64,000 bases of DNA from a bacterium (GTDB lineage Bacteria; Patescibacteriota; Patescibacteriia; JACPHY01), in assembly GCA_030647005.1 (NCBI GenBank), contig JAUSKG010000022.1, positions 18,196-82,195 on the forward strand. Reading direction: 5' to 3'. The position numbers and the translations under genes were made by a program. Each line of letters opens with the position of its first letter. Within the stretch, counting starts at the first letter, position 1. The notes under the pieces are model-generated. The model had not been told where the DNA came from and did no database searches. It saw only the letters and a list, made by a program, of their open reading frames with translations. This document shows, piece by piece, positions 15,331-53,080 of this stretch.

Positions 15331-16038
15331 TCAATGAACGCTGTGGGTGCCCCCACGCTCGCCTTCGGGCACCATCGCAAGGATTTCCTCGTAATGGTAT
15401 GCGGTGTGCGAACGCTCCATCTGCTGCACGATCCGCACGAAGCGCTCCCAATCCTCCACCGTATCCACCGCGAGCTGCGCAGTACTGTTATCGTGCGACG
15501 CGCTGAAGTTCTTGATGCGGAACTCCTCTGGGTGCTGATAATAGTACCGCGTAACATGCTCGCGATCCAACGGATCCGTCATGCGCACATGCGCGCGTCG
15601 GAATGGCTCCGTGCGCACAACCTCCACGGAAACGCCCACGGGAAAACTCCGCGGAAACGTGTTCGTGACAAGATCATACTCGCTACCGCGAAACAATGCC
15701 ACCGCAGTCGAAATGACCGCAGGATCAGTGAGCGGGCTATCCCCGCACACGCGCACGAATGCGTCGAATTCGTGCGCGTCCGCAGCGGCAAAAAATCGCC
15801 CAGCGACGTCCACAAGTGAACCACGGAAGCACGGAATGCTCTTGTCCGCACAGAACGCAGCGATGGGATCATCGCTCGTTTCGTCCGACGTTGCCACGAT
15901 CACACCATCCACGCCGTGCGCAAGTGCAACACGCTCAAGTGTGTACAGAAGCATGGGCTTCCCCCCAAGGTCACGGAGCACCTTCCCCGGCAACCGTTGC
16001 GAGCTCATCCGTGCTTGAACGATGATGCCGATCGTCAT
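15331..16038 (-). CDS. CMP-sugar cytidylyltransferase (NeuA/PseF-like) 2
   Basis: MTIGIIVQARMSSQRLPGKVL motif. ATGA overlap with the upstream methyltransferase. Confidence 0.7.
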   Translation of the reverse strand: MTIGIIVQARMSSQRLPGKVLRDLGGKPMLLYTLERVALAHGVDGVIVATSDETSDDPIAAFCADKSIPCFRGSLVDVAGRFFAAADAHEFDAFVRVCGDSPLTDPAVISTAVALFRGSEYDLVTNTFPRSFPVGVSVEVVRTEPFRRAHVRMTDPLDREHVTRYYYQHPEEFRIKNFSASHDNSTAQLAVDTVEDWERFVRIVQQMERSHTAYHYEEILAMVPEGERGGTHSVH

Positions 16039-16943
16039 ACGTATGTTTGTGGTGCGGCTGGTACCGCAACCCCTTCGGGATAATATGCAACCGTTTCTGC
16101 ATGCCACCGCTCGAAAAAATTCTGCACCGCACGGTAATCGTCGCCAGTCCAAGGGATGGTTTCGTCGACATCGCGCCGCTCCGCGATCATACACAGAACG
16201 TCATGATCAATGTAGCGATTCGTCTGTCGCACCGCGAAGTGCGCAGTAGCGAGCTGTGCCGTGAGCGTCTGGGCGCTCCACCGGAACGCGTGACTATCCG
16301 CAGCACGACCCCCGAGGTAGTAGTGGAGCGGCTTCTTGAATGGGACGAAAATGCGACTGCCCGTTGCCACCACCACCTGCCCACCGGGCCGCAACATCCG
16401 GTGTGCTGCCGCGAGCATCGCGCGCGGCGACTGACAATTCTCCATGGTCCACGCGATGACCGCGATATCATACTGCCCTGCGGATGTTCCGCTTGCCGCA
16501 TACTCCTCAATGGTGCCACGGAAATTGGGAATACCAAGGGCTGTCATGCGCGCACAGTTCGCGCGCGACGGCTCAATACCAAACACGGCGGCTCCGTACT
16601 CCGACTGCCGGAGCATCTCGAGGAATACCCCCTCCCCTGCACCGATGTCGCACACACGCTTCCCCTGCAGCCCCCCGAGCTGCTCCGCCATGAACGCCGC
16701 GACGAACGTGAGCCGCGCCCGCACTGCCGGTAGGAGCGCGGTGTACCCGTTCCCATAAATCTGCTCTGACCACTCATCCGCAATCGCGCCCGCGGAGCGG
16801 CGTTGCTTCACATACACAAACCCGCACTGTATGCAGATATGAATCGGCTGCCCGCCCGTGTATTCGCGCGCATGCGGAACCTCCACGGCATCCGTGGTAC
16901 CACAAATGTCACAGGGAAAATCCATTGGGTCAGATTGGGACAT
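16035..16943 (-). CDS. class I SAM-dependent methyltransferase with N-terminal Zn-ribbon
   Basis: CDICG...CIQCG Cys pairs; VCDIGAGEG SAM motif I. Confidence 0.7.
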   Translation of the reverse strand: MSQSDPMDFPCDICGTTDAVEVPHAREYTGGQPIHICIQCGFVYVKQRRSAGAIADEWSEQIYGNGYTALLPAVRARLTFVAAFMAEQLGGLQGKRVCDIGAGEGVFLEMLRQSEYGAAVFGIEPSRANCARMTALGIPNFRGTIEEYAASGTSAGQYDIAVIAWTMENCQSPRAMLAAAHRMLRPGGQVVVATGSRIFVPFKKPLHYYLGGRAADSHAFRWSAQTLTAQLATAHFAVRQTNRYIDHDVLCMIAERRDVDETIPWTGDDYRAVQNFFERWHAETVAYYPEGVAVPAAPQTYV

Positions 16944-16951
16944 ACATTTGT

Positions 16952-16990
16952 GTCATTGCGAGGGAGTCCGCGACCAAAGCAATCCCGACC
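16952..16990. repeat. half-copy of GTCATTGCGAGG…GCAATCCCG palindromic repeat family (intergenic)
   Basis: gtcattgcgagggagtccgcgaccaaagcaatcccgacc. It shares about 30 of 35 nt with the copies inside leuS. Confidence 0.6.
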
Positions 16991-17082
16991 ACGACCAGAT
17001 GCAGGAGCTACGGCCGTTCCCCACCAATGATATCCAGCATTGCTTCGACGCGCGCAGCCGTGCTCCTCGCAATGACATCGAA

Positions 17083-18252
17083 TTACACTGGCGGAAACCG
17101 CAGCTGCCATTCCCCTCCCTCCTGCTTCCAAATCTCGGCATTTCGGTGCCGGTCAATGAGCGCGGTGAACTCCTGATCCGTGAGGTGGAGGTACGCGAGC
17201 ATGTCCTGGTAGTACCGCGCAGGAAACTCATGATCGTATGCGCGTGCGTGCGCGAGTCCCCGCTCCCGCGTGAGTTGCTTGTTCTGGATCATGCGACTCG
17301 CATCGCGTATCGCGCGGCCAAAACCAAACTTCACGTACTGCAGGTAGTAGTAGAGGTTGTCCGATTTGTCATCCAACGAATCAAAGTCCGTGAATGTTCC
17401 CTCCGTGCGCCCCTCGGCACACGTCTGAAAATCAATCTTATCCTTGATGTATTCGTAATTCTCAAAGCTGCTCCACTTGAAGAAATACGCGAAGTAGTAT
17501 GCGCGCACGCCGACGCGCTGGATGTCCTGGATGGCAGGATACCGATACGGGTTGAGGTCACGCTCCGTCACCACGTCATCCACCCAGTTGCGCGGATCGT
17601 CACCAATTTGATGCTCGATAACCTCGGTAAAATCCCGCACTTTCGCAGAATCCTCACGAAGCACCTTGCCGCCGTACTCGCTCTCGCCGTGCTCGGCGTA
17701 CAAAACGAGCGGGATGCCGTACCGCACCGCGGCCTGTACTGGCGTTGCGTTGATACCCGCATCCCACGCAATCTTATGATTGCCGCGCTCCAGAAAGAAT
17801 CGCCGCGCGAGATGCCGGTGGATACGCTGATCTGGACGAAGGAGATGATGATCAAACCCCGCCTGAATCATCGCCTCGTAGTTGTGCAGACCGACAGCCG
17901 TCGGAAGTTGTGGCGAGAACGTGACGAGGAGCGGATTCATCCCAAACTCATGCTTGAGCTTGTACGCGATGGCACTGCTGTCCTTCCCACCGCTCCACGG
18001 CACGATGCAATCCCACGATCCATCGTCCGCACGGTACTGATCGAGCAACGCGAGAAACTCCGCACGCCGCGCCGCCCAATCAATGCCATCCCACTTCCGC
18101 TCCGCATACCGACATGCATTGCACACGCCCTCTGCATCAAAAACGATGCGCGGACGCGAGTTGGGCATGACGCAACGCGTACAGTACTGAATCGTGCGGC
18201 CCCCATGTGCTGCGATGTCTTGCCGCGTGTGCGATGTGATCGTCATGTCCAT
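17083..18252 (-). CDS. N-acetyl sugar amidotransferase (WbuX/PseA-like PP-loop ATPase)
   Basis: YCTRCVMPNSRP...CNAC Zn-ribbon followed by SGGKDS PP-loop. Start trimmed to MDMTITSH. Confidence 0.8.
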   Translation of the reverse strand: MDMTITSHTRQDIAAHGGRTIQYCTRCVMPNSRPRIVFDAEGVCNACRYAERKWDGIDWAARRAEFLALLDQYRADDGSWDCIVPWSGGKDSSAIAYKLKHEFGMNPLLVTFSPQLPTAVGLHNYEAMIQAGFDHHLLRPDQRIHRHLARRFFLERGNHKIAWDAGINATPVQAAVRYGIPLVLYAEHGESEYGGKVLREDSAKVRDFTEVIEHQIGDDPRNWVDDVVTERDLNPYRYPAIQDIQRVGVRAYYFAYFFKWSSFENYEYIKDKIDFQTCAEGRTEGTFTDFDSLDDKSDNLYYYLQYVKFGFGRAIRDASRMIQNKQLTRERGLAHARAYDHEFPARYYQDMLAYLHLTDQEFTALIDRHRNAEIWKQEGGEWQLRFPPV

Positions 18253-18256
18253 ACAG

Positions 18257-19003
18257 TTACACGCGCACCGAAATCCCCGCCTTCGCAAGGTACGCCTTCG
18301 CGCTATGGATACTCGGCTCCGTGAAGTGATAAATATTCGCAGTGCACACCGCGGACGCATGGCCGTCGCGAAATCCGTCCACAAAATCCTGCCACTTGCC
18401 CGCGCCACCGCACACGAGTACCGGAACGTCCACGGCATCGGCGACGAGCTGGTTCAACGTATTGTCGTAGCCCTCCAATGACCCGTCCTTCTCCATGGAG
18501 GTGATCATGACCTCCCCCGCTCCGCGCGCTTGCGCTTCTCGCGCCCACGCCGCTGGATTGAGCCCTGTCGGTTGCGTCCCACACTCGGTATACACCTCGT
18601 AGGTCCCCTGCGCATTCCGCCTCGCATCCAAAGAAACAACGACGCACTGCGCTCCGTATGCCTGTGCGATCTCCGTGATAAACCCAGGCCGTTGCACTGC
18701 CACCGAATTCACCACCACCTTGTCGGCACCGCTCCGCAGGAGCTGCTGCACATCCTCCATCGTACGCACTCCGCCGCCCGCTGCCAATGGCACGAAACAG
18801 CGCTCCGAGAATTGCTCCACCACTGCAAGAAAATGCTCACGCACACCCAACCCGGGACGGGTGATATCGAGGAGCACCACTTCATCTACAGACCATGCGT
18901 CCACAAAACTCGCCGTGTAGCGGTAGTCCGGTTGAAACTCCTTCGTCCGAAACAGCACGCCGTCATTGAACGTAAGGACGGTGACAACACGATTACGCAA
19001 CAT
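18257..19003 (-). CDS. imidazole glycerol phosphate synthase cyclase-subunit homolog (HisF/WbuZ-like)
   Basis: Full-length HisF-like (beta/alpha)8 signature (…VPLAAGGGVRT…VVNS…). Confidence 0.85.
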   Translation of the reverse strand: MLRNRVVTVLTFNDGVLFRTKEFQPDYRYTASFVDAWSVDEVVLLDITRPGLGVREHFLAVVEQFSERCFVPLAAGGGVRTMEDVQQLLRSGADKVVVNSVAVQRPGFITEIAQAYGAQCVVVSLDARRNAQGTYEVYTECGTQPTGLNPAAWAREAQARGAGEVMITSMEKDGSLEGYDNTLNQLVADAVDVPVLVCGGAGKWQDFVDGFRDGHASAVCTANIYHFTEPSIHSAKAYLAKAGISVRV

Positions 19004-42400: not shown

Positions 42401-42442
42401 CACGTCCTCCGTCGTTCCGTTGTTCTGTTGTGAAGGAGCTCC

Positions 42443-42490
42443 TCTTCCCCGCTCAACCCCATGTTGCCATGGGGTTGAGCGGGGAAGAGG
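42443..42490 (-). terminator. perfect ~20-bp-stem hairpin between two minus-strand genes (candidate terminator/attenuator; no U-tract)
   Basis: TCTTCCCCGCTCAACCCCAT-gttgcc-ATGGGGTTGAGCGGGGAAGA, located between the stop of gene 42507..43475 and the start of the giant repeat protein. Confidence 0.35.
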
Positions 42491-42506
42491 CGCGTCGCAA
42501 CGCGCC

Positions 42507-47929: not shown

Positions 47930-50497
47930 TTACTCCCTAATGAAATTCACGATCTTGTCCGGCACAAAAACAACGCGCACAGGATCGCGCTCCCCGAGGT
48001 GCTTGCGGACATTCGCCTCCCCGAGCGCACGCGCCCGCGCATCCTCCTCGCTCGTACCCGCAGGGACACGGATCGTCGCGCGGTGCTTGCCGTTCACCTG
48101 CACGACGAGGTTCACCTCCTCATCCACGATCAACGTGGGGTCATAGTGCGGCCAAGGGTGAGCAAGAACACTTTTTTTGTTCCCGAGCTTCTCCCACAGT
48201 TCCTCGGCGAGATGCGGCGCGAACGGCGCGAGGAGACGCAGAAAATCCGAGCGTATCGGTGAACCATCCGCAGCAAACTCTCGCGGATCGCGCGCAACCA
48301 AGTTCATGAATTCCATCATCGCGGCAATCGCCGTATTGAACCGCATTGCCTCAATATCCTCACTCACCTTCTTCATCGTCTTATGGAGTGCACGCTTCAA
48401 TGTTTTTTCTGACACTTCCTCAACGACGTGTTGAATTGGTCCGGTTGCATACGTCCAAACCTTTTCCAAAAACCGCCGACACCCCTTCAGCCCATCCGTG
48501 GACCACGGGACGGCCTGATCGAAAGGTCCAATGAACATCTCGTACAGACGCACGGCATCCGCGCCGTACTGCGCGATAATGTCGTCCGGATTCACAACGT
48601 TCCCACGCGACTTGGACATCTTCTCACCGTTTGCCGCCAAGATCATGCCGTGTGATGTGCGCTTCTGATACGGCTCCGCTACCGGCACAACGCCGATGTC
48701 GTGCAAAAACAGGTTCCAAAATCGCGAGTAGAGCAGGTGGAGCGTCGTGTGCTCCATGCCGCCGTTGTACCAGTCCACGGGGAGCCAGTGTTGCAGGAGC
48801 TCTTGGGACCATCGTCCCTGCCTGTCATTGCGAGGAGTCCGCGACGCGGCAATCCCGGTCAATGGAGTACGCGGAAACAACTCCCCATGCATCGCATACG
48901 CTAGGAAGTACCACGACGATCCCGCCCAGTTCGGCATGACATCGGTCTCACGTTTCGCCGGTCCACCGCACCGGGGACAATTGGTGTTCACGAACGAAGC
49001 AATATTCGCAAGCGGCGACTCCCCCGTATCCGTCGGCTCATACCGTTCCACCTCGGGCAACAAGATGGGGAGCTGATCCTCCGGTACAGGCACCGTCCCG
49101 CACGCCGCACAGAACACCACCGGAATGGGCTCACCCCAGTACCGCTGCCGCGAGAACACCCAATCGCGAAGCTTGTATGTCACGGTCATCGTGCCGCCGA
49201 CGGCTTCCGTAATCGCTGCGCGGGCCTCATCGCTGCGCATGCCGTCAAACGCTCCGCTGTTCGTGAGCAGGCCATCGCCGGTATAGACCTCTTCATTGGC
49301 CGGGATTGCCACGTCGCTCGCGGATTCACTCCTCGCAATGACCGTCGTGATATGCAACCCATACTTCTGTGCAAAACCAAAATCCCGCTCATCATGCGCG
49401 GGTACCGCCATAATGGCACCAGTGCCATAGGAACCGAGGACGTAGTCGGCGACCCAGACGGAAATCTCCTCGCCGTTCGCGGGGTTCACGGCGGTGATGC
49501 CGGCGGCAACACCGGTCTTCTCGCGCGCATCTGCGGCGCGGTCCATGTCGGTCACCTTTCGCGCGGCCGCGACGTACGCGCGCACGTCATCGGACGCTTG
49601 CCAACCGGCATCCATCCACCGCTGCGCGAGCTCGGGTGACACGACGAGGAACGTCGCACCAAAGAGCGTGTCCGGACGCGTCGTGAAGACGGAAATCACC
49701 ATGTCATTGCGAGGAGTCTGCGACGTGGCAATCCCGGCGTTTACTGTTGATGGCCAGGATTGCTTCGCCCCGACCAGAGCGCCGGGGCTCGCAATGACAG
49801 AAAACGTGATGTTCGCTCCCTCGGAACGCCCGATCCAGTTGCGCTGCTGCGCCTTCGCGGCTTCGATGTAGTCCACGTGGTGAAGACCATCCAAGAGCTG
49901 CTCGGCGTACGCGGTGATCTTGAGCATCCACTGTTCCTTCTCGCGCTTGTCCACGACGCCACCGCACCGCTCGCACCGTCCGCCGACGACCTCCTCGTTC
50001 GCCAAGCCAATCTTGCACGAGGGACACCAGTTGATCGGCACCCGCGCCTTGTACGCCAAGCCGCGCTCAAGGAGCTTGAGAAAAATCCACTGCGTCCACC
50101 GGTAGTACGCGGGGTCGGTCGTGTTCACCTCGCGCGACCAGTCAAAGGAAAAGCCGGCGGCCATGAGCTGCCGCTTGAAGTTCGCGATGTTCCGCTCGGT
50201 CGTCACGCGCGGGTGCTCACCGGTCTTGATCGCGTAGTTCTCCGCCGGAAGACCGAACGCATCCCACCCCATGGGGTAGAGGACGTTCTTCCCCTCCATC
50301 CGGTGCTTGCGCGCGATAACATCCATCGCCGTGTACGAGCGCAGATGCCCCACGTGGAGCCCGTCGCCGGACGGGTACGGAAACTCGACGAGGAGGTACT
50401 CCTCCTCGCCTCGTGCATCGTCGGCCGCGTGCGCGCGCTGCTCGTTCCACACGCGCTGCCACCGTTCCTCCATGGCTCCGTGATCGTATTTCGCCAT
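47930..50497 (-). CDS. leuS: leucine--tRNA ligase
   Basis: PYPSGDGLHVGHLRSYT (HIGH), KMSKSRGNVV (KMSKS) and the editing domain are present. Repeat-element insertions lie in-frame (see repeats). Confidence 0.95.
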   Translation of the reverse strand: MAKYDHGAMEERWQRVWNEQRAHAADDARGEEEYLLVEFPYPSGDGLHVGHLRSYTAMDVIARKHRMEGKNVLYPMGWDAFGLPAENYAIKTGEHPRVTTERNIANFKRQLMAAGFSFDWSREVNTTDPAYYRWTQWIFLKLLERGLAYKARVPINWCPSCKIGLANEEVVGGRCERCGGVVDKREKEQWMLKITAYAEQLLDGLHHVDYIEAAKAQQRNWIGRSEGANITFSVIASPGALVGAKQSWPSTVNAGIATSQTPRNDMVISVFTTRPDTLFGATFLVVSPELAQRWMDAGWQASDDVRAYVAAARKVTDMDRAADAREKTGVAAGITAVNPANGEEISVWVADYVLGSYGTGAIMAVPAHDERDFGFAQKYGLHITTVIARSESASDVAIPANEEVYTGDGLLTNSGAFDGMRSDEARAAITEAVGGTMTVTYKLRDWVFSRQRYWGEPIPVVFCAACGTVPVPEDQLPILLPEVERYEPTDTGESPLANIASFVNTNCPRCGGPAKRETDVMPNWAGSSWYFLAYAMHGELFPRTPLTGIAASRTPRNDRQGRWSQELLQHWLPVDWYNGGMEHTTLHLLYSRFWNLFLHDIGVVPVAEPYQKRTSHGMILAANGEKMSKSRGNVVNPDDIIAQYGADAVRLYEMFIGPFDQAVPWSTDGLKGCRRFLEKVWTYATGPIQHVVEEVSEKTLKRALHKTMKKVSEDIEAMRFNTAIAAMMEFMNLVARDPREFAADGSPIRSDFLRLLAPFAPHLAEELWEKLGNKKSVLAHPWPHYDPTLIVDEEVNLVVQVNGKHRATIRVPAGTSEEDARARALGEANVRKHLGERDPVRVVFVPDKIVNFIRE
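48824..48858. repeat. half-copy of GTCATTGCGAGG…GCAATCCCGG repeat, in-frame inside leuS
   Basis: gtcattgcgaggagtccgcgacgcggcaatcccgg. It is translated in LeuS as GIAASRTPRND. Confidence 0.6.
49703..49798. mobile_element. complete 96-bp palindromic miniature element with 11-bp terminal inverted repeats GTCATTGCGAG/CTCGCAATGAC, inserted in-frame in leuS
   Basis: gtcattgcgaggagtctgcgacgtggcaatcccggcg…ccaggattgcttcgcc…ggggctcgcaatgac. Length is 96 nt (32 codons) and encodes VIASPGALVGAKQSWPSTVNAGIATSQTPRND, absent from E. coli LeuS at this position. A nested GGCAATCC/GGATTGCC pairing lies inside. Confidence 0.7.
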
Positions 50498-50583
50498 ACC
50501 CCTGCATCGTAGCACGGGTGTGCGCGCATGGCAGTACCGCTCCGATGTCCATCGGAGCGGTACTGCGCGGTTCCTGTTTTTTC

Positions 50584-51222
50584 TTACTCTCCTGCGGATG
50601 CATCGGCGGCGGACGGCGCAGCATCGGGTGCTCCCGTGCCTTCCGGTGCCTGCTCCAACGGGTTCGGCTCCTCCGCGACGCGCTGTTCTGCCGACGCGGC
50701 GAGGATGCCCTGAACGACGGTGCTGTTGTCGCGGAGGGACTCCGTGAAGAGCACATGCTCACGATTGATCTGCATCTCGTCCGTGGGACCATGGAGCTCG
50801 CTGCCGAGCTTCACGAGTGCGACATTCGGTGGCGGCTCCGGTTGCCCGGCGTCGCGCTGCTGGAGTGACGGCGAGACCTGGAGGTAGTACACGTCACGGA
50901 GCACGAGCGATTCGCGCGTCCGTTCCGTCAGGTGCCCAAAGTACACCTGCCCGTTCGTGAGAAACACCGCGCTCCAGGCACTCGGCGGCGTCGCTCCGGG
51001 CACGGACACCACGCCGAAGACCACGAGCGCAAGCACGACGACCGCTGCCACCGCAACCGCCCACGGCGTGAGCGCATGGACCGACGCAGGCGCTGCGGAC
51101 GGTTTCATAACCGACGCAGTGCCAAACGCCCCCACCCGCTTCGCTGGCACGCGCCGGCGCGGGGCCTTCTGTGACGACTGCATCCCATACTCCTGTTGTT
51201 CTTCCATAGCATCAAGCATCAT
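50584..51222 (-). CDS. hypothetical single-pass membrane protein
   Basis: One TM (WAVAVAAVVVLALVVFGVVSV) plus an extracytoplasmic domain; acidic, Pro-rich C-terminus. Confidence 0.35.
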   Translation of the reverse strand: MMLDAMEEQQEYGMQSSQKAPRRRVPAKRVGAFGTASVMKPSAAPASVHALTPWAVAVAAVVVLALVVFGVVSVPGATPPSAWSAVFLTNGQVYFGHLTERTRESLVLRDVYYLQVSPSLQQRDAGQPEPPPNVALVKLGSELHGPTDEMQINREHVLFTESLRDNSTVVQGILAASAEQRVAEEPNPLEQAPEGTGAPDAAPSAADASAGE

Positions 51223-52684: not shown

Positions 52685-53080
52685 ATGGAGGAACCCATCA
52701 CCAAATCATACTTCGACGAAAAGTTCGACGGCTTCACCCGAGCGGTGGACGAAAAGATCGGCGGCCTCGCTCGAACGATGGACGAAAAGATCGGCGGTCT
52801 TGCTCGAGCGATGGACGAACAGATCGGCGGCCTCGCCCGAGCGGTGAAGGAGGGATTTGATCGTGTTGATGAGCGATTTGATGCAGTGGATGAGCGATTC
52901 AACACGATAGAGGGTGACATCGCCGACCTCAAATACCGCATGCGTCTCATGGAGGGCGAAATCCAAGCACTGAGCGCGAACATGGTGACGAAGCAGTACC
53001 TCGATGCAAAAACGGCGCGTTGGCGCCGTCCTGAGGACGTCTTCGGCCGAAGGATCTCGTACGCGTCGTGTTCCCGTTGA
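52685..53080 (+). CDS. small coiled-coil protein with three tandem 11-aa repeats (A/T)(V/M)DEKIGGLAR
   Basis: MEEPITKSYFDEKFDGFTRAVDEKIGGLARTMDEKIGGLARAMDEQIGGLARAVKEGFDRVDERFDAVDERF…. The 33-nt DNA tandem repeats lie at ~52729–52838. It is the only plus-strand gene before 61.6 kb. Confidence 0.5.
   Translation: MEEPITKSYFDEKFDGFTRAVDEKIGGLARTMDEKIGGLARAMDEQIGGLARAVKEGFDRVDERFDAVDERFNTIEGDIADLKYRMRLMEGEIQALSANMVTKQYLDAKTARWRRPEDVFGRRISYASCSR

Follow-up and report, generated by a model that had tools for sequence, protein, structure and literature searches.

A 96-bp segment in the leuS gene of a bacterium from the candidate phyla radiation (CPR) is a dimer of a dispersed hairpin repeat that lies, like two single copies in the same gene, in-frame in a loop of the encoded leucine-tRNA ligase (LeuRS), and leuS is intact. 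The gene belongs to a 64,000-nt stretch of contig JAUSKG010000022.1 (GenBank assembly GCA_030647005.1), hereafter the window, which comes from a Patescibacteria/Uhrbacteria-like metagenome-assembled genome (MAG) with about 60% G+C. In all likelihood the segment, which we call element B, is an inverted dimer of a single-stranded DNA (ssDNA) hairpin repeat of the repetitive extragenic palindromic (REP) type, has the design of the CGTC/TGTC superfamily and is tolerated in the reading frame of leuS. Four other explanations are weighed below (an ancestral LeuRS peptide, a classical transposon derivative, a strict REPIN and a co-opted signal), and all four are less well supported.

Structure of the element in leuS

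Element B (core 49703-49798, or 49702..49799 with the flanking T/A, minus strand) reads GTCATTGCGAG...CTCGCAATGAC. As the initial annotation stated, its 96 bp amount to exactly 32 codons and stand in-frame in the 861-aa open reading frame (ORF) of leuS, where they correspond to LeuRS residues 240-271. The encoded peptide is VIASPGALVGAKQSWPSTVNAGIATSQTPRND, and both other sense frames are interrupted by stops. The inverted repeats reported to bound the segment are also there: GTCATTGCGAG lies at 49703, and the last base of its reverse complement is 49798. The true ends are perfect inverted repeats of 12 nt (TGTCATTGCGAG/CTCGCAATGACA, at 49702-49713 and 49788-49799). The internal GCAATCC/GGATTGC pairing was likewise seen correctly and is contained in an 11-nt inner block, GCAATCCCGGC/GCCAGGATTGC. 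Pairing is limited to the 12-nt ends and this block. Hence the word "perfect", used for the palindrome in the initial annotation, has to be dropped: 40 of the 96 positions match the reverse complement of the element itself, and the two arms have unlike interiors, which makes the element a heterodimer.

Arm B-left (49702..49737, plus strand) is the 3' arm in the sense of leuS and has the composition TGTC-ATTGC-GAGGAGTCTGCGACGTG-GCAAT-CCCGG, while arm B-right (49754..49799, minus strand) is TGTC-ATTGC-GAG-CCCCGgcgctctggtCGGGG-CGAA-GCAAT-CCTGG. The inner GC hairpin of arm B-right is unlike that of arm B-left; the arm folds into an outer ATTGC/GCAAT stem and an inner stem of 8 bp, with a free energy of -10.9 kcal/mol. 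RNA folding, proposed initially as a check, gives -53.9 kcal/mol (z = -5.2) for a 112-nt stretch that holds the whole of element B.

Copies of the element in the window

A search of the window with the pattern CATTGCGAG-N5-35-GCAATSC found six arms arranged as four loci, compared with 0.00 expected from 100 shuffles. The head is TGTC in five of the six arms and GGTC in one, the tails are CCC or CCT, and the spacers of the two dimers are 22 and 51 nt long. A looser scan gave five extra weak matches against about one expected; the fuzzy matches (824, 7889, 13380, 37328, 51819) were chance-like on inspection and were rejected. Sister-family copies were searched for in the window and none was found.

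The intergenic locus, element A (core 16952-17076, or 16951..17077, with no strand assigned), is a full dimer of 125 bp in which two inverted arms are separated by the 51-nt spacer. It occupies a 139-nt gap in a polysaccharide-biosynthesis cluster, between a 451-aa ORF (17083-18438, minus strand) and the methyltransferase gene (16035-16943, minus strand) downstream of it. The initial annotation listed an intergenic half-copy at 16952-16990; the intergenic copy is real, and the half-copy is the left arm of this complete element. The other three loci are in leuS. Besides element B there is solo arm C (48824-48858, or 48823..48858, plus strand, TGTCATTGCGAGGAGTCCGCGACGCGGCAATCCCGG), which had been recognised as an in-frame half-copy and whose minus-strand peptide is TGIAASRTPRND (residues 553-564). 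Solo arm D (49303-49342, or 49303..49343, minus strand) had been overlooked. It reads (G)GTCATTGCGAGGAGTGAATCCGCGAGCGACGTGGCAATCC(CGG), encodes VIARSESASDVAIP (residues 392-405) and sits in a variable loop of the LeuRS editing domain. Thus leuS holds four arms in both orientations, one dimer and two solo, and the remaining ~61 kb of the window holds one element.

Two further inverted repeats of the window are unrelated to the arm family. One is a perfect 17-bp palindrome, GCAGTACCGCTCCGATG-ga-CATCGGAGCGGTACTGC, at 50531-50566, in the gap that separates the leuS start (50515) from the stop of the ORF upstream (50584-51222, minus strand); it has no T-run after it and could be a regulatory or processing hairpin. 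The other is the longest inverted repeat of the window (42438-42493, GCTCCTCTTCCCCGCTCAACCCCATG/CATGGGGTTGAGCGGGGAAGAGGCGC), 26 bp with 96% complementarity and a 4-nt loop.

Accommodation of the inserts in LeuRS

The host gene (47930-50515, minus strand) matches Thermus thermophilus LeuRS (1h3n) with E = 5e-225. Its nearest orthologues are 64-70% identical, and several of them are labelled Candidatus Uhrbacteria or Patescibacteria. The HIGH motif (HVGH, residues 54-57), KMSKS (632-636) and TTRPDT are all intact. About 27-30 residues of element B have no counterpart in the T. thermophilus enzyme. They fall between ...ILFPV and ...VFTTRPDT, after the last catalytic-core strand and before the editing-domain motif TTRPDT. 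Relative to the T. thermophilus protein, arm C falls in an 18-aa gap and arm D in a loop of similar length. Comparison with orthologues, another check proposed at the outset, was made on an alignment of 59 CPR LeuRS sequences. The majority have no insert at any of the three positions (sites B, C and D), and site B in the majority is a loop of 10-14 residues with nothing element-like in it. At site C the window LeuRS is 12 aa longer than the closest orthologue subgroup ("LAYAMH"), and the loop at site D ranges from 34 to more than 150 residues among orthologues.

An AlphaFold2 model of the window LeuRS, built on 50 sequences, has a mean pLDDT of 83 and a pTM of 0.80. In it the inserts are coil: pLDDT goes down to 38 in residues 242-271, is below 50 in 545-565 and drops from 75 to 58 at ~392-410. 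Since all three are predicted as low-confidence coil, the repeat-derived peptides are probably surface loops and not folded modules. The catalytic and editing motifs of LeuRS are untouched by the inserts, which contain no stops in the leuS frame and lie in length-variable loops. The repeats are probably translated and form loops on the enzyme surface that are neutral or nearly so, with selection acting as a filter: in an essential gene, only insertions that are in-frame, free of stops and placed in permissive loops would survive.

The loops at sites B and D, which carry repeats in the window LeuRS, have taken up extra domains elsewhere in CPR, which makes them general insertion hotspots. An alpha/beta-hydrolase domain precedes TTRPDT at site B in four orthologues (P0011, P0064, P0071, P0091), and the editing-domain loop at site D contains a NUDIX domain or an unannotated module of ~120 aa (P0038, P0050, P0062 and others; P0007, P0008, P0023).

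Recurrence at one LeuRS codon

The nearest orthologue (P0002, 70% amino acid identity) carries an element of 117 bp (39 codons) at site B and a solo arm at site D, each with exactly the codon and frame of its counterpart in the window LeuRS. The two site B inserts differ in their interiors and have identical ends. More specifically, their 12 terminal codons are identical at 36 of 36 nt, compared with 52.5% identity among same-amino-acid codons gene-wide (P about 4e-4). The initial annotation held that the same residues encoded by divergent, non-palindromic DNA in relatives would point to an ancestral insertion domain and not to a repeat. What the nearest orthologue has is an element at the same codon with its palindromic ends intact.

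Other orthologues extend this picture. A partly decayed element is found at the same codon of site B in P0012, a solo arm identical to arm B-left at 31 of 32 nt in the distant orthologue P0050 and in P0062, and one or more copies at site B in P0071, P0073 and P0107. In P0008 an element of the sister family (ATTCT...AGAAT) is inserted two codons further on; since it belongs to another family and lies in a different frame, this insertion is clearly an independent event. On a rough neighbour-joining tree of 119 CPR LeuRS orthologues the site B signature is present in nine sequences scattered over at least seven clades, and three insert-free orthologues (P0003, P0013, P0020) are placed within the clade of the window LeuRS itself. 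Simple vertical inheritance of the shared sites was rejected on account of these nested insert-free sequences. So site B would either have been hit repeatedly or have lost its elements many times and with precision; on either account the ends would have been kept at the family consensus.

These data bear directly on the first alternative, that the insert is an ancient, vertically inherited LeuRS peptide with a protein-level role at the junction of the catalytic core and the editing domain, its likeness to repeats being secondary. The shared codon and frame at sites B and D in two proteins of 70% identity agree with such an origin, as does the presence of other inserts, even whole domains, at site B of CPR LeuRS. 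On the other hand, the same DNA arm is found between genes in the window, in unrelated genes and in many phyla; the interior peptide is not conserved between the window LeuRS and its nearest orthologue while the DNA ends are; relatives of the same clade lack the insert; and the model shows coil with a pLDDT of 38-65. An ancestral peptide is thereby largely refuted and is extremely improbable.

The native residues at the insertion boundaries resemble the arm ends. V-I precedes site D, and the arm starts with GTC ATT; at site C (48823-48834) many orthologues natively have D-P-(K/R)-N-D where the end of arm C encodes P-R-N-D. This likeness could reflect microhomology-guided insertion, a tolerance filter or coincidence. 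In the closest relative a sister-family arm, TGTCATCCTGAGGCGAAGCCGAAGGATCTC (contig L001, 12675-12704, minus strand), overlaps the leuS stop codon, which gives this leuS three repeat-derived pieces of its own. Family-like heads in the GDH gene of the same contig were chance-like and were set aside.

The arm family in other genomes

The arms of the window belong to a family, hereafter the ATTGCGAG family, which was scanned for in one genome per species with the pattern GTCATTGCGAG-N5-35-GCAATCC. Among the matches listed there are at least 120 stretches, from Alpha-, Gamma- and Deltaproteobacteria, Bacteroidota, Chloroflexota, Cyanobacteria, Firmicutes, Planctomycetota, Spirochaetes, Gemmatimonadota and Patescibacteria. 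They include many from Bradyrhizobium and sphingomonads, some from Rickettsiales (L055, L079, L102), a Tisiphia endosymbiont among them, and three from Patescibacteria. The CPR-type arm alone occurs in 84 metagenome stretches. The canonical form is (C/T)GTC-ATTGC-GAG-(variable hairpin, often GCGAAGC)-(C)GAA-GCAAT-CCAG, followed by a spacer and the inverted partner, so that a conserved internal loop, GAG...(C)GAA/GTG, surrounds a variable GC-rich inner hairpin. In a set of 127 distinct arms, 119 have a YGTC head, and 111 have a tail that is either CCA (76) or CCC (35); the minimum free energy fold of 110 contains the outer stem.

The hairpin itself appears to be conserved, given that outer-stem variants are compensatory: of 107 heads of the same design that are not ATTGC, 27 are perfectly closed where about 1 would be expected, and the variants include ATCGC/GCGAT, ATTCT/AGAAT, ATCCC/GGGAT and others. 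Strong self-folding of every arm as a REP hairpin was considered and rejected, since single arms do not fold above the level of shuffled sequence; support for the hairpin comes from the compensatory variants instead.

The 44 complete inverted dimers in other genomes measure 73-125 bp, with spacers of 12-58 nt. Their lengths divide 17:16:11 over the three remainders modulo 3, which rules out an element length that is intrinsically a multiple of three. As no such preference exists elsewhere, the codon-multiple length of the dimer in leuS would be a product of selection and not a property of the element. In-frame copies are found in other proteins too: a full dimer in UvrA of a gammaproteobacterial MAG (L082), another in the tRNA-guanine transglycosylase TGT (L179), and arms in PurL of a Bacteroidales MAG (L117) and in a 2409-aa fn3-domain protein (L202). 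At most 71 of 395 arms lie inside ORFs of at least 250 aa, and this is an upper bound, as GC-rich DNA gives spurious ORFs.

The family has apparently not been catalogued: neither the intragenic-REP table of PMC3733652 nor the SRM repeat pattern of PMC11893778 seems to contain ATTGCGAG...GCAAT. Rfam has no family at the gathering threshold in the window and none at relaxed thresholds in the leuS region, and on element-rich loci of Bradyrhizobium, Rickettsiales and Solimonas it returned only spurious miRNA matches to another hairpin. The encoded peptides have no match in NCBIfam and Pfam even at E <= 10, and a literature search with the raw element sequence yielded unrelated primers only.

Several metagenome contigs (L162, L170, L202, L154, L158) carry 6-15 family arms within a few kb, some of them beside small GIY-YIG genes. 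These dense arrays resemble the NIME- and BIME-like clusters of Neisseria and Wolbachia.

Relation to known repeats

REPs tagged with CGTC have a head often "changed to TGTC", a stem that starts with A-T/T-A and a CCA tail (PMC3733652). They mostly form inverted dimers with 20-100 bp spacers and have no known dedicated transposase; a minority are intragenic, where dimers encode 20-30 aa (PMC3733652). Reported from five phyla that do not include Patescibacteria, they occur within UvrA/B/C, DNA polymerases, FGAM synthase and tRNA-modifying enzymes (PMC3733652). The ATTGCGAG arms have the features of this superfamily: an unpaired head of the CGTC type (often TGTC or CCTC), an A-T/T-A stem start and CC tail (ATTGC/GCAAT, then CC), and inverted dimers with spacers in the same range (22 and 51 nt in the window). 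Common to both are also heads that point outward in dimers, singletons that look like dimer remnants, and in-frame genic copies that include aminoacyl-tRNA synthetases, UvrA and FGAM synthase. The differences concern the detail of the arm. Here 10-38 nt separate the stem halves and comprise the GAG/GAA internal loop and the variable inner hairpin, unlike in CGTC families 1-4, and the peptides (VIAS/R...PRND, SLRG...LAMT, HCEE...) are absent from the intragenic-REP table of PMC3733652. The arm therefore fits the superfamily design and none of its four described families.

The initial annotation compared the element with Rickettsia palindromic elements (RPEs), i.e. with a miniature repeat that invades coding genes in-frame. 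This is broadly correct and is supported: the arm is also intergenic, occurs in many phyla and is found in UvrA, PurL and TGT, and the insert is missing from most LeuRS orthologues and predicted as coil. RPEs are small palindromic repeats inserted in-frame in functional genes, essential ones included, and kept as an extra peptide where the position is permissive (PMC3733652), which is the situation here as well: leuS is intact, retains its catalytic motifs and has three in-frame copies. The likeness goes beyond analogy because RPE-4 and RPE-6 belong to the CGTC superfamily, whose defining anatomy the element has: CGTC-1 is the same as Neisseria dRS3 and R. conorii RPE-6, and CGTC-4 is RPE-4 (PMC3733652). 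None of the numbered RPE families matches, the RPE-4 and RPE-6 peptides (VIPWLDHGI, and VIPAKAGI/SFPRKRES) being different from VIAS...PRND. RPE-1 is longer and unrelated in sequence. The host of RPEs is Rickettsia and here it is a free-living or epibiotic CPR lineage; the ATTGCGAG family itself is nevertheless found in Rickettsiales genomes. An insertion of this kind was initially called unusual for an essential aminoacyl-tRNA synthetase. It has precedents, however: in E. litoralis, CGTC-1 dimers are present in both GlyRS-beta and IleRS (PMC3733652).

The dimeric architecture raises two alternatives based on transposition. A classical miniature inverted-repeat transposable element (MITE) would be a deletion derivative of an insertion sequence (IS), mobilised in trans by a DDE transposase that acts on 12-bp TG...CA terminal inverted repeats. 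Element B does have perfect 12-bp terminal repeats (TGTCATTGCGAG/CTCGCAATGACA), and 96-125 bp is a typical MITE size. No target-site or other direct duplication flanks element A, element B or the copy in the nearest orthologue, however; solo arms are common, individual arms each contain a conserved hairpin that shows compensatory variants, and the ends are conserved across phyla, unlike those of IS-derived MITEs. The genes enriched next to arms are of the GIY-YIG type, and no parent IS turned up, though no systematic search was made. We consider a MITE very unlikely.

The same low probability applies to a strict REPIN, a REP doublet replicated by a RAYT (an IS200/IS605-like Y1 transposase) through precise excision and insertion at a short target. 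An inverted doublet of short hairpin repeats that persists in genomes over the long term is shared with REPINs; the architecture with its remnant-like singletons matches, and precise excision with targeted insertion would explain the patchy presence at one codon. REPINs are defined by a GTAG head and an associated Y1 transposase, and here the head is YGTC and no RAYT association turned up, RAYT genes not having been screened. In addition, no dedicated transposase was found for CGTC REPs (PMC3733652), and the only gene family tested for adjacency to arms, GIY-YIG, is enriched.

Association with Ssn-type GIY-YIG nucleases

SsnA is a 94-aa single-domain GIY-YIG nuclease which binds and cuts the NTS (CGTCATTCCCGCGMAVGCGGGAATCYRG), the Neisseria CGTC-1 repeat, as ssDNA only (PMC11893778). 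Cleavage needs 3 nt 5' of the palindrome, and binding needs a C just after it (PMC11893778). Across bacteria, ssn homologues have hairpin repeats of their own (SRMs) on either side, in the manner of an IS (PMC11893778). The SsnA/NTS pair lowers transformation of Neisseria by repeat-bearing DNA, and mobility has only been hypothesised (PMC11893778). The layout of NTS and SRMs, i.e. an HGTC head, a palindrome initiated by A-T and a C, is shared by the ATTGCGAG arms. SRMs occur in clusters and are often found on either side of a single-domain GIY-YIG gene of ~95-105 aa, and the same arm-gene-arm layout is found for ATTGCGAG arms in other genomes.

An iterated hidden Markov model search over all ORFs of 209 loci (1.57 Mb) detected 11 small GIY-YIG ORFs. 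Pfam scans of four of them gave PF01541 and no other domain, and among solved structures the UPF0213 protein 1zg2 is nearest. With the closest relative of the window left aside, nine of ten lie within 220 nt of an arm, compared with 640 of 4332 (15%) control ORFs (other ORFs of 80-140 aa in the same loci; Fisher p = 3e-7). In one locus (L097) the gene is bracketed by inverted arms. Judged from these other genomes, the ATTGCGAG family appears to be the repeat cognate to an Ssn-like subfamily. Because small GIY-YIG genes adjoin family arms there, we propose the arm as a candidate Ssn-type ssDNA substrate and give this proposal an even chance. In the mechanism that would follow, the arm as an ssDNA hairpin would be recognised by a small Ssn-type GIY-YIG nuclease, a step that is less secure than tolerance of the peptides. 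Nuclease-triggered repair or gene conversion between copies, or else precise re-insertion, might then keep the ends identical and reuse the same LeuRS codon, which is speculative.

In the closest relative a GIY-YIG gene lies upstream of leuS at a distance of 2.2 kb; it was considered as the cognate nuclease and rejected, as its CPR homologues (P0122, P0124, P0133) are embedded among housekeeping genes with no arms nearby. Where the contig of the closest relative has a small GIY-YIG gene beside GDH, the window has a 131-aa ORF (52685-53080, plus strand) with internal tandem peptide repeats (DEKIGGLARTMDEKIGGLARAMDEQIGGLARAV...) and no Pfam match. In Candidatus Kaiserbacteria (L211/L212, 5001-5282) a 93-aa single-domain GIY-YIG gene with a conserved place between a NusB/NUDIX fusion gene and that of RNase III has no hairpin repeats around it and represents the housekeeping-embedded CPR subfamily.

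The leuS copies could alternatively have been co-opted, either as an mRNA hairpin with an effect on the translation or decay of leuS, or as Ssn cleavage sites by which a naturally competent CPR cell would keep incoming ssDNA from replacing its leuS. In favour of a function one can cite element ends conserved beyond coding need, four arms of both orientations in leuS against one element in the other ~61 kb, a very stable RNA hairpin, and the reduced transformation caused by SsnA/NTS in Neisseria (PMC11893778). Yet SsnA is inactive on RNA (PMC11893778), no Rfam family matches, the window lacks a GIY-YIG gene by tblastn, and the majority of CPR LeuRS have no inserts. Moreover, the family consensus is conserved everywhere, so that renewal of repeat copies would by itself produce conserved ends. 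Co-option is thus quite unlikely.

A more far-reaching version of the REP-type reading is that the LeuRS loop before TTRPDT is a true hotspot, at which repeats of the superfamily are inserted again and again, or renewed through gene conversion, at one CPR codon, driven by an Ssn-type ssDNA nuclease that acts on the hairpins, the four arms of this leuS maybe serving as cleavage sites against recombination with incoming DNA. We regard this version as unlikely.

It is important to note that several observations weigh against a tolerated repeat of the REP type and against its link to a nuclease. Random insertion does not account for the finding that, of the four element loci in 64 kb, three are inside a single gene of 2.6 kb. 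CGTC families 1-4 have stems of 8-9 bp and loops of 4-5 nt, and here the outer stem has 5 bp. The folds of single arms are no better than those of shuffled sequences (z between -1.6 and +0.8). None of 459 ATTGCGAG arms, and none in the window, matches the SRM pattern HGTCWYN(0-2)YYVSBRHN(0-5)WNVSBRGN(0-2)RNCYNB, which the NTS used as positive control does match. No GIY-YIG protein is encoded in the window according to tblastn, and the small GIY-YIG protein near leuS of the closest relative belongs to the arm-free, housekeeping-embedded subfamily. The protein database has no LeuRS more than 70% identical and hence no empty site from a close relative. Finally, that the inserts are translated as tolerated loops is something we infer, with good confidence.

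Conclusions

The presence of REP and RPE repeats in essential genes, aminoacyl-tRNA synthetases included, is already documented in the literature of 2000-2013. What is added here is a CPR host, a very widespread and apparently uncatalogued arm family, its statistical tie to Ssn-like nucleases and a recurrent LeuRS hotspot.

Protein-coding palindromes are thus not peculiar to Rickettsia and a few Proteobacteria and are also found in essential enzymes of streamlined CPR genomes. The tie of the ATTGCGAG family to Ssn-like GIY-YIG genes extends the pairing of Ssn proteins and repeats beyond the published search motif. For annotation, the family explains odd low-complexity peptides (VIAS..KQS, IATS..PRND, SLRG, LAMT) in CPR and other proteins, as well as length variation in LeuRS. 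The one LeuRS codon at which the element recurs could offer a natural system in which to study repeat movement. If the hotspot reading were true, repeats of the CGTC type would be a nuclease-driven, homing-like mobile system that protects the genome in naturally competent ultra-small bacteria.

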